From IMG/VR virus record IMGVR_UViG_3300029749_000255: DNA of 6,229 bases; one strand, given 5' to 3'. The notes beneath the pieces were generated by a model. That model saw nothing but the letters and a program-made list of their open reading frames with translations, ran no database searches and was not told the origin of the DNA. Source of the stretch: a virus (lineage: Duplodnaviria; Heunggongvirae; Uroviricota; Caudoviricetes). Each line of letters begins with the position of its first letter. Positions within the stretch are counted from its first letter, which is position 1. Made by a program: the position numbers and the translations under genes. Positions 1 to 5,852 of this stretch are shown piece by piece.

Positions 1-192
1 TCCATTAAAAATGATGGACATTATTTTTGTAGAGCCGGAGGAAACAGACCAGACGGTTTAAATGAGCCGGTTACTTTAAATACCGGGACAGTCCGCTTTA
101 TTACCGGACTGCACGGGAGGCTTTGCGCCTTGAACAGTCCAGCGGGTACGACCGGGCGATGCAGGTCTGGGCCAAAGCGAACGTCGGTTTGA
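1..192 (+). CDS. Possible 3' end of an upstream gene continuing beyond the window; product unknown
   Basis: Frame 1 is open from the window edge to a TGA at 190-192 (63 codons). The peptide has no motif I recognise and is Cys/Gly/Arg-rich, so it may equally be non-coding. Two overlapping minus-strand ORFs (21-296, 101-412) look spurious. Confidence 0.25.
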   Translation, partial: SIKNDGHYFCRAGGNRPDGLNEPVTLNTGTVRFITGLHGRLCALNSPAGTTGRCRSGPKRTSV

Positions 193-239
193 TTTTTGTC
201 TGATGCAGAACATGCGCGAAAAGCGTAAGGAGGTGGACG

Positions 240-434
240 ATGTCTAATATCGATAATAAAGGTTGGGGGTTCCCCGCCCTGTCGAAAAAAGCACATTTCT
301 TTAATTCGGGGGAAGCCATATCACTATGCGGAAAATGGATGTTCACAGGTATCAGGATTGACGAATGGCATGACCATCCTGAGAACTGCGCTATCTGCAT
401 GAAGAAACGCAAAAAGCAGGAAGGCGAAAGCTAA
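240..434 (+). CDS. Small Cys/His-rich hypothetical protein (possible zinc-ribbon), phage-associated
   Basis: 64-aa ORF with a strong Shine-Dalgarno (TAAGGAGGT at 226-234) 5 nt before the ATG at 240. The C-terminal half carries C-x(13)-H-x-H-x(3)-C-x(2)-C, a plausible metal-binding knuckle, and a basic tail. Its TAA stop overlaps the next ATG (TAATG, 432-436), indicating translational coupling. Confidence 0.55.
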   Translation: MSNIDNKGWGFPALSKKAHFFNSGEAISLCGKWMFTGIRIDEWHDHPENCAICMKKRKKQEGES

Positions 435-718
435 TGGCCTATGAACGTGAAAACCTAATCGAAAAGCACCTCGTCGCTGAAGTAAAAAAGGCTGGCGGGG
501 TTGCCTTTAAGTTCGTATCTCCCGGTCTCCGCTCGGTACCAGATCGCATTGTTCTGCTACCCGGCGGTCGCATCGTCTTTGTCGAATGCAAAGCACCAGG
601 CAAACCACCACGACCTGATCAGTTGCGCGAGCATGAACGTCTGCGAAAACTGGGCTTTACCGTGGTAGTACTGGATAGTAAGGAGCTTTCATGTATATTA
701 GGCAAAAAATTACAATAG
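434..718 (+). CDS. VRR-NUC domain nuclease (PD-(D/E)XK superfamily)
   Basis: 94-aa protein with the VRR-NUC layout: GxxxKF ... PDRIVLL ... FVECK ... QLREHERLRKLGFTVVVL (a D ... E-x-K catalytic motif). The start overlaps the upstream stop. The last ~12 codons lie in AT-rich DNA and may be a replaced C-terminal tail. Confidence 0.8.
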   Translation: MAYERENLIEKHLVAEVKKAGGVAFKFVSPGLRSVPDRIVLLPGGRIVFVECKAPGKPPRPDQLREHERLRKLGFTVVVLDSKELSCILGKKLQ

Positions 719-733
719 GAGTCTGTGTAAGCT

Positions 734-1651
734 ATGGCTAAGCAACAAACGAAAGAAATAAACCAAGATGATGTAAAAGACAACAAAAATATGCCACCTC
801 ATATATGCGGCATTATTATGCCAATTGCGGACATAGAAGGTTATCCCACTGGACATTGGAGAAATGTTCATGACATTATTTGTGAAGCATCAAATGATGC
901 CGGATTCAAGGCAAATTTGGTAAGTTCAGATGATGATGTTGCAGTAATACAAAAACGAATTGTTCAAAATCTTTATGAAAACCCCATAGTTGTTTGCGAT
1001 ATAAGTGCTCGAAACGCTAATGTAATGTTTGAATTAGGAATGCGTCTCGCATTTGACAAACCGACCGTAATTATTAAGGACGAGCGCACTCCTTATAGCT
1101 TTGACATTTCATCAATTGAACATTTAGAGTACCCTTCGGATTTAAGATACCAATCAATCAATTTATTCAAAGAAAGACTTGCGAGCAAGATAAAAGAAAC
1201 ATATTTAAAGTCAGTAACTGATCCTGAATACACAACATTCCTCAAACATTTTGGCACTTTCAAAGTTGCACAACTAGACCAGAAAGAAGTATCAGAAACT
1301 GAGTATCTGGCATCTGAGATTAAAGATATCAAATCATTATTGATATCTCTTAGGGCAACAGCAACGACAAAATCCAGATTTTTCGACTCACCGAAAAATT
1401 ACTCGCAGCAGGAAATTGACAACTCTGTAGATATTATTAAAAATGGAGTTGCCAGTTATACTATAAGGAGTGAAGGATTTAGTATATCAAAATCAGCACT
1501 AGAAAAGTTACGCCAAAGACTACACAACGCAGGATTTCAAGTCGAGCAAATAGTATTGACAGGAAAAGAAGTAATTATTCATCTGTCATCACCTTTAATA
1601 AATGAAGAAGAAAATATTTTTAAAGATGCAATAGTAACAGCACTATTATAA
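734..1651 (+). CDS. Hypothetical protein with an N-terminal nucleoside 2-deoxyribosyltransferase (NDT)/TIR-like Rossmannoid domain and a C-terminal domain of unknown function; candidate defence or anti-defence effector
   Basis: 305-aa ORF, by far the longest in this stretch. Hand-sampled GC is roughly 28-40% against roughly 55-70% in the flanking helicase. The N-terminal ~120 aa match the NDT/DNPH1-like pattern: a beta-strand IIMPIAD, then PIVVCDISARNANVMFELGMRLAFDKPTVII, with Glu100 (nt 1031-1033) in the E-L-G position of the family's catalytic glutamate. The C-terminal ~180 aa are charged and helical with no motif I recognise. AGGAG at 717-721 sits 12 nt upstream of the ATG. Confidence 0.75.
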   Translation: MAKQQTKEINQDDVKDNKNMPPHICGIIMPIADIEGYPTGHWRNVHDIICEASNDAGFKANLVSSDDDVAVIQKRIVQNLYENPIVVCDISARNANVMFELGMRLAFDKPTVIIKDERTPYSFDISSIEHLEYPSDLRYQSINLFKERLASKIKETYLKSVTDPEYTTFLKHFGTFKVAQLDQKEVSETEYLASEIKDIKSLLISLRATATTKSRFFDSPKNYSQQEIDNSVDIIKNGVASYTIRSEGFSISKSALEKLRQRLHNAGFQVEQIVLTGKEVIIHLSSPLINEEENIFKDAIVTALL

Positions 1652-1663
1652 ATAACATTTTTA

Positions 1664-1699
1664 AAACAACAAAAGGTCTAAATTGGCCTTTTGTTGTTT
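1664..1699 (+). terminator. Perfect 13-bp hairpin (A/U-rich stem) between the AT-rich ORF and the helicase RBS; possible weak intrinsic terminator or attenuator
   Basis: AAACAACAAAAGG (1664-1676) pairs perfectly with CCTTTTGTTGTTT (1687-1699) around a 10-nt loop. The helicase Shine-Dalgarno AGGAG follows immediately at 1700-1704. The stem is AU-rich, so termination efficiency is uncertain. Confidence 0.4.
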
Positions 1700-1713
1700 A
1701 GGAGCCATATTAT

Positions 1714-3108
1714 ATGCCCCCAAAATATATACCTCGCCCCTACCAAGTTCTCATTATCAACCACGAAACCGAAACCCTGCGCGGCAACATCTGGGCGGGG
1801 ATGGGAATGGGTAAAACCGTGGCAACGCTCACTGCGCTGGAAGATCTCTTTATGGCAGGGGCAGAAACATGCCCCGCACTGGTCCTCGCGCCGCTGCGCG
1901 TGGCTGCCAGCACATGGCCGGATGAAGCACTGAAGTGGGGACATTTGCGCAATATCGAGGTGCAGCCAATTATTGGTAATGCCAAAGCGCGCTCTATGGC
2001 GCTGACGAACAGCAACGCAAGCGTGTTCACCATCAACTACGATAACCTTGTCTGGCTGATTGAAGAATTGGGAGAACGATGGCCGTTCGGTACTGTCATT
2101 CCAGATGAAAGCACCCGGCTAAAATCCTTCCGGCTGCGCGGTGGTGGTAAGCGCGCGGCGGCGCTGGGCAAAGTGGCGCATAAGTATGTCCGGCGCTGGA
2201 TAAATCTCACCGGTACGCCAGCACCGAACGGCCTGGTAGATTTGTGGGGACAATCGTGGTTTGTGGACCAGGGGCAACGTCTCGGGCGCACTTACGGCGC
2301 GTTTACCTCACGCTGGTTCAACTCGATACAGTTTCCGGGGCAGAGCTGGACCAAACTGGAGCCTTTTGCTCACTCACAGGGTGAAATACAGCGAGCGTTA
2401 GCCGATGTAACCCTCTCGCTGGATGCGGCCGACTGGTTCGATATCAAAGACCCCATCCATAACGTAATCCGCGTGGATATGCCACCGAAGGCCCGTCAGC
2501 AGTATCGTGAAATGGAAAAGGAAATGTTCCTCGAGCTGAATGGCGAAGGCATCGAAGCACCGAACGCCGCGGCAAAGACACTGAAGTGTCTGCAAATCGC
2601 CAGCGGCGCAGTATACACAGATGACACCGGAAGTTGGTCAGAACTGCATGACACCAAACTACAGGCGCTGGACAGCATACTGACCGAAGCAGCTGGCGCA
2701 CCTGTGCTGGTTGCTTATCACTGGAAACACGATCTTGAACGCTTGCTTAAAGCATTCCCTCGCGGTCGTCACCTCGACCAGGATCCACAGACACTGCGCG
2801 ACTGGAATTCCGGAAAGATTCCTGTTCTCTTTGCACACCCAGCCAGCGCGGGCCACGGCCTGAACATGCAGGACGGCGGAAATATACTGGTATTTTTCTC
2901 ACACTGGTGGGACCTGGAGCAATATCAGCAAATTATTGAACGTATCGGCCCCACCAGGCAGATACAGGCCGGACACAATCGTCCGGTATTTATTCACCAC
3001 ATTATTGCTGCCGACACTATGGATGAAATGGTGATGGAGCGGCGCAACTCAAAACGAACAGTGCAGGACATCCTGCTCGATGCCATGAAAAAGAGAGGTA
3101 TAGCATGA
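1714..3108 (+). CDS. SNF2-family (DEAD/DEAH-like superfamily 2) helicase, phage-type
   Basis: 464-aa protein with Walker A GMGMGKT (nt ~1798-1818), a DExx box (IPDESTRL), the SNF2-typical motif III LTGTPAPNGL, and a C-terminal helicase domain (HGLNMQ ... QQIIERIGPTRQ). AGGAG at 1700-1704 sits 9 nt before the ATG. GC is high. Confidence 0.9.
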   Translation: MPPKYIPRPYQVLIINHETETLRGNIWAGMGMGKTVATLTALEDLFMAGAETCPALVLAPLRVAASTWPDEALKWGHLRNIEVQPIIGNAKARSMALTNSNASVFTINYDNLVWLIEELGERWPFGTVIPDESTRLKSFRLRGGGKRAAALGKVAHKYVRRWINLTGTPAPNGLVDLWGQSWFVDQGQRLGRTYGAFTSRWFNSIQFPGQSWTKLEPFAHSQGEIQRALADVTLSLDAADWFDIKDPIHNVIRVDMPPKARQQYREMEKEMFLELNGEGIEAPNAAAKTLKCLQIASGAVYTDDTGSWSELHDTKLQALDSILTEAAGAPVLVAYHWKHDLERLLKAFPRGRHLDQDPQTLRDWNSGKIPVLFAHPASAGHGLNMQDGGNILVFFSHWWDLEQYQQIIERIGPTRQIQAGHNRPVFIHHIIAADTMDEMVMERRNSKRTVQDILLDAMKKRGIA

Positions 3109-5369: not shown

Positions 5370-5450
5370 TTATAAGAACAGAAGGATCAGCTGTAAAACA
5401 GCAATGATGATTTTGATGACCCGTTTAATAAGGTATCGGCAATCAGTCAT
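5370..5450 (-). CDS. shoB: Type I toxin-antitoxin toxin ShoB (26-aa hydrophobic membrane peptide)
   Basis: The reverse complement of 5370-5450 translates to MTDCRYLIKRVIKIIIAVLQLILLFL*, matching the E. coli ShoB peptide as I recall it. An AAGGA Shine-Dalgarno sits 6 nt upstream on the minus strand. The ORF is too short to appear in the supplied track. The position between yfhL and acpS matches E. coli K-12. Confidence 0.85.
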   Translation of the reverse strand: MTDCRYLIKRVIKIIIAVLQLILLFL

Positions 5451-5506: not shown

Positions 5507-5535
5507 NNNNNNNNNNNNNNNNNNNNNNNNNNNNN
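5507..5535. other. Run of 29 N (assembly gap or masked bases) inside the shoB leader / shoB-ohsC regulatory region
   Basis: Directly visible in the sequence; the true length and content are unknown. Confidence 0.99.
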
Positions 5536-5774
5536 GCATGCTGCACTCCACACCAGAGCTTTGACGACACCACTCGTTTCAATGGGGGAATTCTGTGGCA
5601 TGGTATAAAGCACAGCAAAATCGCCAATAACGAAGCCAATTTTAATGTACTTCCGAATTGGCGGTCACGTTAATCTTTCCATCAATATTGTTTTCTTCGT
5701 AAAGGCTCGAGTTTTTATGCTAAAGATTGCAAGTTGCTTGTAAAAGATAACCGCCCTGATCCATAATCGCTCTT

Positions 5775-5852
5775 GTTGAGGGTGCGTGCTGCACAAAATT
5801 AAAGTTGTAAAGTAAACCCCCTGTTCCTTACCAGTTCGGGGGTTTTACTTTT
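5775..5852 (+). ncRNA. ohsC: Candidate OhsC antitoxin sRNA of the shoB/ohsC type I TA locus; boundaries approximate
   Basis: A plus-strand promoter-like pair (-35 TTGTAA 5738-5743, 18-nt spacer, -10 CATAAT 5762-5767) predicts a start near 5775. A GC-stem hairpin at 5812-5848 followed by a U-tract (5849-5853) predicts a ~78-nt transcript. Known synteny places ohsC between shoB and acpS, divergent from shoB. The sequence was not matched from memory. Confidence 0.35.
5812..5848. terminator. Rho-independent terminator hairpin, probably bidirectional (candidate ohsC on plus, acpS on minus)
   Basis: AAACCCCC (5814-5821) pairs with GGGGGTTT (5838-5845) around a 16-nt loop. A T-run follows on the plus strand (TTTTACTTTTT) and a U-rich tract follows on the minus strand. 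It lies 24 nt downstream of the acpS stop (5872-5874). Confidence 0.55.

Follow-up and report, generated by a model that had tools for sequence, protein, structure and literature searches.

The window, by which we mean the whole 6,229-nt stretch of DNA that was analyzed, covers the right end of a prophage that is inserted in E. coli beside yfhL, shoB/ohsC, and acpS. The prophage carries, in order, DUF2800 and DUF2815 genes, a 209-aa AT-rich gene on the minus strand that has no Pfam or PADLOC match, a DNA polymerase, a TIR protein matched by PADLOC as the candidate PDC-S35, a frameshifted ANR regulator, a hypothetical gene, a VRR-NUC nuclease, the ORF studied here, an SNF2 helicase, an HTH/excisionase-like gene, and finally the integrase. 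The ORF begins 15 nt past VRR-NUC, 730 nt downstream of the PDC-S35 TIR candidate, and has the orientation of the replication genes. It is exactly the 305-aa frame that an earlier note on this DNA had described. The features at the locus are the following.

434 to 718, plus strand: VRR-NUC nuclease gene, the left flank of the slot
682 to 1749, no strand: exchangeable cassette of ~1.07 kb in the VRR-NUC / SNF2 slot of the replication module, from comparison with a sister prophage
717 to 721, plus strand: Shine-Dalgarno AGGAG, 12 nt 5' of the target ATG, overlapping the VRR-NUC stop codon (716-718)
734 to 1651, plus strand: target ORF with an ATG start, 305 aa, WP_001551510.1, annotated as "hypothetical protein"
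800 to 1228, plus strand: predicted N-terminal NDT/TIR-like alpha/beta domain, aa 23-165, with strand-helix repeats at aa 23-133 and a long helix at 139-162
1031 to 1033, plus strand: codon of Glu100, the predicted catalytic glutamate, invariant in alignments A1 and A2
1229 to 1357, plus strand: conserved linker (TTFLKHFGTFKVA..EV) and predicted helix, aa 166-208, from conservation in alignment A1 and the structural models
1424 to 1645, plus strand: hypervariable C-terminal domain, aa 231-304, ACT/ferredoxin-like (strand-strand-helix-strand-strand-helix), the proposed sensor
1658 to 1704, plus strand: post-stop hairpin with core stem 1665-1678 / 1685-1698 and a U-rich 3' arm, within the cassette and before the SNF2 RBS
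1714 to 3108, plus strand: SNF2-family helicase gene, the right flank of the slot

Base composition sets the target gene apart from its surroundings. A composition count gives it a GC of 0.344 and a GC3 of 0.258, while VRR-NUC stands at 0.491, the SNF2 gene at 0.546, and the ~24.6 kb prophage sequence at 0.491. The gene is therefore the compositional outlier it had been taken for, against 0.49-0.55 in its neighbors; the contrast with the helicase holds, although the 55-70% earlier ascribed to that gene was somewhat high, its 200-nt windows spanning 0.52-0.62. Low GC is moreover a property of the whole family, since its genes average 11.4 GC points under their flanks over 156 loci and fall more than 5 points under them in 135 of these.

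No convincing promoter belonging to the target itself was found, the 6 promoter-like sites comparing with 3.9 +- 2.0 expected. Since the ribosome binding site overlaps the VRR-NUC stop codon and no promoter stands out, the target may be expressed in lytic growth, together with the lytic replication genes of the prophage, and such expression would suit anti-defense or support of replication equally well. The hairpin 3' of the target stop codon folds at -21 kcal/mol (z = -5.4), and 0 of 200 shuffles were equally stable. It was not called by a rule-based terminator scan; on the folding model, it is probably a terminator or insulator ahead of the SNF2 RBS.

At least 80% of the window is present in 37 of 5,426 complete E. 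coli genomes, and the target gene is found in 24 of the 5,426, each time at >=99% identity. The identical protein also occurs in three Escherichia phage records. The same prophage occupies the same site in E. coli FDAARGOS_1059, but there VRR-NUC and the helicase enclose another gene, which encodes 265 aa on the minus strand, has a GC of 0.327, and is unrelated to the target; the alternative cargo gene, WP_001127515, has no Pfam or PADLOC match. Homology between the window and the FDAARGOS_1059 prophage breaks at ~681 and returns at ~1750, which together with the difference in gene content places the target within an exchangeable cassette of ~1.07 kb. Homologs of the SNF2 helicase are found in 1,638 phage records versus 20 for the target. 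Judged from these comparisons, the target is cargo and not a core replication gene. The earlier note had named a core replication protein of uniform composition as a finding that would count against its interpretation, and the swapped cassette and the record counts point the other way.

Homologs of the target are numerous. The 90%-identity clusters contain 4,466, and at 50% identity at least 4,823 clusters match with E <= 1e-3, of which 909 reach E <= 1e-30. The members are nearly all 270-330 aa in length. On the basis of these numbers, the ORF is a genuine gene and not a chance ORF. The family is present in at least 439 species-representative genomes, with Proteobacteria, Bacteroidota, Acidobacteriota, Verrucomicrobiota, Planctomycetota, Lentisphaerota, Nitrospinota, and Bdellovibrionota among the phyla in the genome listing, as well as in 167 viral contigs. 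On plasmids, it was found in 6 of 72,556 records, all of them distant relatives. Among 50,697 phage records, no classic virulent phage was found with a target homolog, and the phages that carry one are temperate wherever lifestyle could be read.

Shorter and more divergent homologs of 198-217 aa are found in the Gram-positive temperate phages IPP5 and Javan306 of Streptococcus and TMW 1.46 P1 of Latilactobacillus. The IPP5 homolog aligns with an hhalign probability of 97.7% and keeps the sequence NPNAFYELG, and by profile comparison, all 3 are true family members. In each of these phages, the homolog lies in the lysogeny module, sharing the orientation of the repressor and integrase, whereas the antirepressor and replication genes point the other way. 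A fourth distant homolog, of 289 aa, is located upstream of the terminase genes in Dorea phage DO134P1.

The architecture of the protein was examined with an AlphaFold2 model of the full-length target, built from a 49-sequence alignment and of moderate confidence (mean pLDDT 73). At least 55% identity is retained in the N-terminal domain, where members of the A1 set match the query at 65-97%, and the family consensus contains the motifs CGIIMPI, HW, NVMFELGxRLAFDKP, SFD, and EHxxYPxDLR. Identity in the last ~100 aa runs from 77% down to background (<=10%) across the same set, and one member (P0020) shares 84% identity with the target in the N-domain versus 18% in the tail. The tails of 382 proteins fell into 188 BLAST clusters, of which 147 were singletons. 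From the alignments and models, the target is one of a very large family, so far without a name, in which a conserved NDT/TIR-type domain is combined with a hypervariable tail. An NDT-type fold at the N-terminus and a C-terminal part matching nothing recognizable had both been proposed before, and both held up, whereas the extents given for them did not: conservation continues past the proposed ~120 aa to about aa 205-208, and instead of ~180 aa, the hypervariable stretch comprises only the last ~100 aa.

Between these 2 parts, a helix at aa 188-208 appears in both predicted models, and aa 172-186 are of low confidence. The region aa 166-208 is possibly a stalk or oligomerization element, by its likeness to the KpSwz protein discussed below. 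A disordered spacer is predicted between the helix and the C-terminal domain, which is itself compact, with a pLDDT of 85-93 over aa 231-304.

The N-terminal domain, aa 23-165, very probably has a fold of the NDT/DNPH1/MilB type, with weaker links to TIR. Its nearest structures in Foldseek are MilB, NDT, and DNPH1 rather than canonical TIR, and TIR structures were not among the top 50 hits. When PDB sequences were searched with an N-domain profile, 16 weak matches came back, all of them DNPH1 or NDT; trimming to the N-domain was needed, the full-length profile having returned only coiled-coil noise. The family sequence VMFELGxRLAFDKP aligns without gaps over the DNPH1 segment VGYELGRAVAFNKR, and in every top HMM alignment, the invariant Glu100 in MFELG falls on the Glu of VGYELG in DNPH1. 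The YELG glutamate is the catalytic nucleophile of DNPH1, and a PDB entry of DNPH1 described as a "glycosyl-enzyme intermediate" fits this role. The placement of Glu100 at the catalytic position of an NDT/DNPH1/TIR-like fold, which the earlier note had suggested, is thus borne out by Foldseek and by the profile alignments, and its codon is GAA at 1031-1033, within NVMFELGMRLAFDKP, as that note had it.

A second position departs from DNPH1. The Asp of the IHEQD segment is the second catalytic acid of DNPH1, and D->A and D->N variants at this residue are included in the PDB set. In the alignments, this Asp falls on Ile76, which is invariant in the target family, and is therefore not conserved. 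The active site of the target is thus no copy of that of DNPH1, and its chemistry may differ.

The family falls outside all Pfam, NCBIfam, and PADLOC family models. PF05014 scores 13.2 bits for the target protein, under the Pfam gathering threshold of 28.8, and is touched by 45 of 49 members, all below threshold, at 13-17 bits and a best E of 0.0037. PF10137, the TIR domain of Cap12/Pycsar, scores 16.2 bits against a cut-off of 24.7 and is touched by 16 of the 49. The PADLOC TIR effector model PDLC00733 matches all 49 members with a best E of 1e-8, and no PADLOC system model other than this generic TIR effector matches the target. An hhalign comparison with the neighboring PF10137 TIR protein, PDC-S35, places NVMFELG over NVVLEMG, at a probability of 2.7% with a single-sequence template. 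The NCBIfam search of the target gave no meaningful match, and the only PHROG matches are the unannotated phrog_3634 (E 1e-18) and phrog_10872.

Across 156 loci, no conserved partner gene was found beside the family gene; the largest neighbor cluster accounts for 16 of the 156 and comes from one Bacteroides phage lineage. Integrases are found near the gene at scattered offsets in 12 loci, and the VRR-NUC/SNF2 placement recurs in ~8. In a Klebsiella lambdoid prophage, the gene lies between the replication genes and the nin/Q region, while in Pseudomonas, it is at the margin of a small integrase island and in Aeromonas, in an island of unknown genes. On Acinetobacter plasmids, a relative with 26% identity in the N-domain is fused to TPR and lies between 2 TIR-domain genes, adjoining BrnTA, a PIN protein, and a restriction enzyme.

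Defense-gene neighbors were counted by family, pooled over the 148 genes within +-2 positions at 37 genome-derived loci. PADLOC matches among these include mad3, mad8, AriA, and PDC-S06 (2 each), along with dCTP deaminase, PDC-S01, IetA, a DRT-type reverse transcriptase (1 of the 148), GajB, SoFic, and LmuA, all being matches to single HMMs that do not prove complete systems. Pfam matches include TIR_2, NACHT, an AbiEii-type AAA_21, and BrnA, alongside housekeeping genes. These counts are uncontrolled and are suggestive of a defense-type neighborhood for the family.

Several known systems resemble the target in part. The closest in design are Swarozyc and Evangelion, single-gene TIR-like NADase defenses with the DUF4062 domain (PF13271), which consist of a TIR-like core with a catalytic Glu (E97 in KpSwz, E87 in Eva01), a stalk, and a diversified auxiliary domain (bioRxiv 10.64898/2026.05.01.722283; 10.64898/2026.06.25.731849). 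In KpSwz, binding of the phage portal by the auxiliary domain switches on NAD+ hydrolysis (bioRxiv 10.64898/2026.05.01.722283; 10.64898/2026.06.25.731849). The target shares this architecture, being a single protein of similar size with an N-terminal TIR/NDT core and its Glu (E100), a helical stalk, and a diversified C-terminal region, encoded by one gene on mobile elements. Both groups are distributed over prophages, plasmids, and defense islands and are transferred horizontally. PF13271, however, is absent from the table of the first member, from the 25 most frequent of the 36 families matched by 49 members (the other 11 match few members), and from everything that the 4 distant homologs matched at E <= 1. 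The DUF4062 motifs (the F11 aromatic, an acidic-SYT motif with Glu-Tyr, and Q/W/E), which were compared by description only, are not seen in the target family, which has Glu-Leu in MFELG and no SYT. For lack of a PF13271 match in these tables and of these motifs, membership of the target in DUF4062 was rejected.

The N-glycosidases of the NDT superfamily share with the target a flavodoxin-like alpha/beta fold and a [YF]-E-x-G Glu after the third strand. MilB is a CMP/hmCMP hydrolase. Unlike MilB, DNPH1/Rcl, and the NDTs, the target family has a conserved insert (TPYSFDISSIEHLEYPSDLRY) and a C-terminal extension of ~140 aa, and its genomic setting is of a mobile, immune type in contrast to the metabolic setting of those enzymes. 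The effector of retron Ec86 (Eco1) contains an NDT-like domain, depletes adenine derivatives, and acts as an oligomer, so that an NDT-like domain in an anti-phage effector has a parallel there. Ec86 requires a reverse transcriptase and msDNA, however, whereas no RT or ncRNA is conserved beside the target family. No RT was found in the window or the ~24.6 kb prophage, and Rfam matched only ohsC.

Membership in a retron, which would call for a conserved RT or msr/msd RNA partner, and in a Thoeris-like system, which would call for a conserved operon partner, was rejected for want of such a partner, given the neighbor clusters described above. The TIR effectors of the PF10137 type (Cap12 / PycTIR) differ in a similar way, there being no CD-NTase, cyclase, or other signaling partner near the target family. 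A two-gene system with the upstream PDC-S35 TIR was likewise considered and rejected: the 2 genes occur separately in other genomes, and in FDAARGOS_1059, PDC-S35 stays while the target is swapped out. We rate the target family as an unnamed sister family within the NDT/TIR superfamily, one that would pair a conserved effector with a variable sensor, a logic already familiar.

The earlier note had proposed the gene as a candidate for defense or anti-defense, and the NDT-type fold, the invariant Glu, the variable tail, the cassette, and the defense-type neighbors all support that proposal. We lean, with moderate confidence, toward a stand-alone protein of anti-phage (or anti-competitor) immunity that spreads horizontally, here as a moron in the cargo slot of a temperate E. 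coli phage. The gene and its cassette behavior, the fold, the Glu at the catalytic position, the division into conserved core and variable tail, the solitary state, and the mobile and defense-type surroundings come from the data, whereas we infer the defense role, activation by a trigger, the substrate, and an abortive outcome. In the proposed mechanism, the hypervariable ACT-like domain, on its helical linker, would keep the enzyme inactive until it recognizes a phage-derived protein or ligand. Once released, the NDT/TIR domain would attack an abundant metabolite, NAD+ or a (deoxy)nucleotide, with Glu100 serving to break its N-glycosidic bond, and loss of this metabolite would starve phage replication and abort the infection. 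Each element of this mechanism has a validated precedent in the DUF4062 proteins and the retron Ec86 effector. If the target is a defense protein, we would place NAD+ slightly ahead of nucleotides as its substrate.

A more specific proposal is that the target is the founding member of a phylum-spanning family of single-protein sensors, in which an NDT-type N-glycosidase acts on nucleotides and not NAD+, and an exchangeable ACT-like tail reads a phage protein or a small-molecule cue. We consider this unlikely. By analogy with MilB and DNPH1, the substrates might be, for instance, dNMPs, ATP-family metabolites, or hydroxymethylated phage nucleotides.

The same fold and location can be read in favor of the phage rather than the host. 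A counter-defense enzyme might destroy a host immune signal or substrate (cADPR isomers and cyclic or modified nucleotides are examples) or remove a toxic nucleotide, with the tail fitted to different host systems. The chemistry is compatible, as an N-glycosidase could inactivate nucleotide signals, and the gene shares its direction with early and replication genes, or lies in the nin region, in this prophage and in Klebsiella lambdoid phages. The tight coupling of the target to VRR-NUC, with no clear promoter, points in the same direction, as does an Acb2/Tad1-hairpin gene in the Klebsiella phages that carry the family gene, which suggests that those phages collect anti-defense cargo. Yet the distribution is not what would be expected, with many non-phage chromosomal loci beside housekeeping and defense genes among the species-representative genomes and no classic virulent phage among the phage records. 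The Gram-positive phage homologs, in the lysogeny module and transcribed with the repressor, also argue against it, and known anti-defense proteins are mostly small sponges or phosphodiesterases. On balance, a counter-defense role seems improbable. Alternatively, the protein might serve nucleotide metabolism in the phage as a DNPH1/MilB-like N-glycosidase of (deoxy)nucleoside monophosphates, either adjusting the nucleotide pool or removing modified or damaged nucleotides on behalf of the adjacent DNA polymerase/helicase module. Such a role would account for the closest structures being nucleotide N-glycosidases and for a gene embedded in the replication module, in a placement that recurs elsewhere. 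We regard it as very improbable, because such a role is difficult to reconcile with a gene so much rarer in phage records than the adjacent helicase, swapped for an unrelated gene in a sister prophage, and found by its family in many unrelated contexts that lack replication genes. A hypervariable C-terminal domain is also hard to square with a housekeeping enzyme, and the Asp studied in DNPH1 is not conserved.

The N-domain might instead be a non-catalytic, SLOG-like ligand-binding domain, or the protein a generic toxin or addiction module serving competition between elements or the maintenance of plasmids and prophages. Invariance of the Glu and its surrounding motif across phyla, in alignment with catalytic glutamates, argues against the former, and the lack of a conserved partner to supply a signal or an antitoxin argues against both, so that we hold these alternatives to be quite improbable. 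This leaves a stand-alone immunity protein as the interpretation that we prefer, and the target as a strong, testable candidate for a new single-gene defense family whose logic has precedents.

If this is validated, a "hypothetical" family of at least 4,800 clusters, spread over hundreds of species from Proteobacteria to Bacteroidota and Acidobacteriota, would become a recognized defense system. It would also mean that, within the NDT/TIR superfamily, a conserved N-glycosidase core was joined to a swappable sensor tail on more than one occasion, and the 305-aa target would offer a compact model for how such enzymes are restrained and activated. Should nucleotides prove to be what is attacked, both the effector chemistry and the sensor class would be new for stand-alone bacterial immunity. 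With a defense role validated, the VRR-NUC / SNF2 junction of the replication module would be a cargo hotspot worth mining.

Literature searches found no paper that contains the accession, the name of the phage, or the invariant peptide, and TIR and NDT both go unmentioned in a metagenomic-selection paper. An exhaustive survey of E. coli TIR proteins relied on HMMER domain annotation. Since the target passes no Pfam threshold, domain-based surveys of this kind miss the family. In current annotation, its members are labeled "hypothetical" and sometimes, wrongly, "RNA helicase."

The prophage that carries the target has a putative second NADase-type gene, that of WP_001551506, which is a TIR protein of PF10137 (the Cap12/PycTIR type) and matches PDC-S35, a candidate single-gene system in PADLOC (E 1e-108). 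The gene lies 730 nt upstream of the target, with the DNA polymerase gene on one side and an ANR-family regulator on the other, the latter annotated as a frameshifted pseudogene in every genome inspected. A 209-aa minus-strand gene is a third gene of the replication module that stands out by its base composition, and searches of Pfam and PADLOC returned no match for it. In E. coli FDAARGOS_1059, whose sister prophage we refer to as L171, the exchangeable slot between the VRR-NUC nuclease and SNF2 helicase genes holds WP_001127515 in place of the target, on the opposite strand and likewise AT-rich. This protein also has no match in Pfam or PADLOC and is further uncharacterised cargo of the VRR-NUC/SNF2 hotspot. 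Coordinates are those of the window, of L171, or of L001, a locus with ~24.6 kb of the target's prophage.

L001 19169-19930, ending at window ~4: WP_001551506, 253-aa PF10137 TIR protein, PDC-S35 match
Window 69-247: ANR-family transcriptional regulator, annotated frameshifted pseudogene
L001 16365-16994, minus strand: 209-aa gene, GC 0.287, between DUF2815 and DNA polymerase
L171 3660-4457, minus strand: WP_001127515, 265 aa, GC 0.327, counterpart of window ~682-1749

Across 156 loci (L011-L170), the mean GC of the target family is 0.378 and stays low whatever the GC of the host, while the flanks reach 0.69. This suggests either frequent transfer or selection for AT-richness. Several family members (P0047, P0057, P0086, and P0100) are called "RNA helicase" by NCBI or UniRef, which looks like a propagated misannotation, as neither sequence nor model offers any support for a helicase.

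The Klebsiella lambdoid prophages with a family member (L003-L006) contain an Acb2/Tad1 hairpin-domain gene (PF24729, ~14156-15130), and carry candidate defence and likely anti-defence cargo together. On an Acinetobacter conjugative plasmid (L177 3591-5806), a three-gene cluster adjoins BrnTA, a PIN-like gene, and an AlwI restriction enzyme, and may represent a multi-gene relative whose target-type N-domain works together with TIR proteins. Its genes are as follows.

TIR protein, 136 aa
Fusion of TPR repeats with a distant relative of the target N-domain, 407 aa
TIR protein, 182 aa

The target itself has been disrupted in strain JNEC-KY203 (L174 601-2295; window ~734-1651), where an IS1 inserted after about codon 47 leaves two ORFs of 47 aa and 272 aa. 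The insertion amounts to a natural knockout, a possible sign of a fitness cost.

The integrase end of the prophage adjoins yfhL, just upstream of shoB and ohsC, a host type I toxin-antitoxin pair present in the window.

Window 5370-5450, minus strand: shoB toxin ORF, as annotated in L001
Window 5508-5536: run of 29 masked N, host intergenic region from shoB to ohsC/acpS
Window 5775-5851, plus strand: ohsC sRNA, Rfam RF02495, 99 bits

Because of the masked bases, one ORF translation contains "XXXX" and BLAST matches fall in two pieces.
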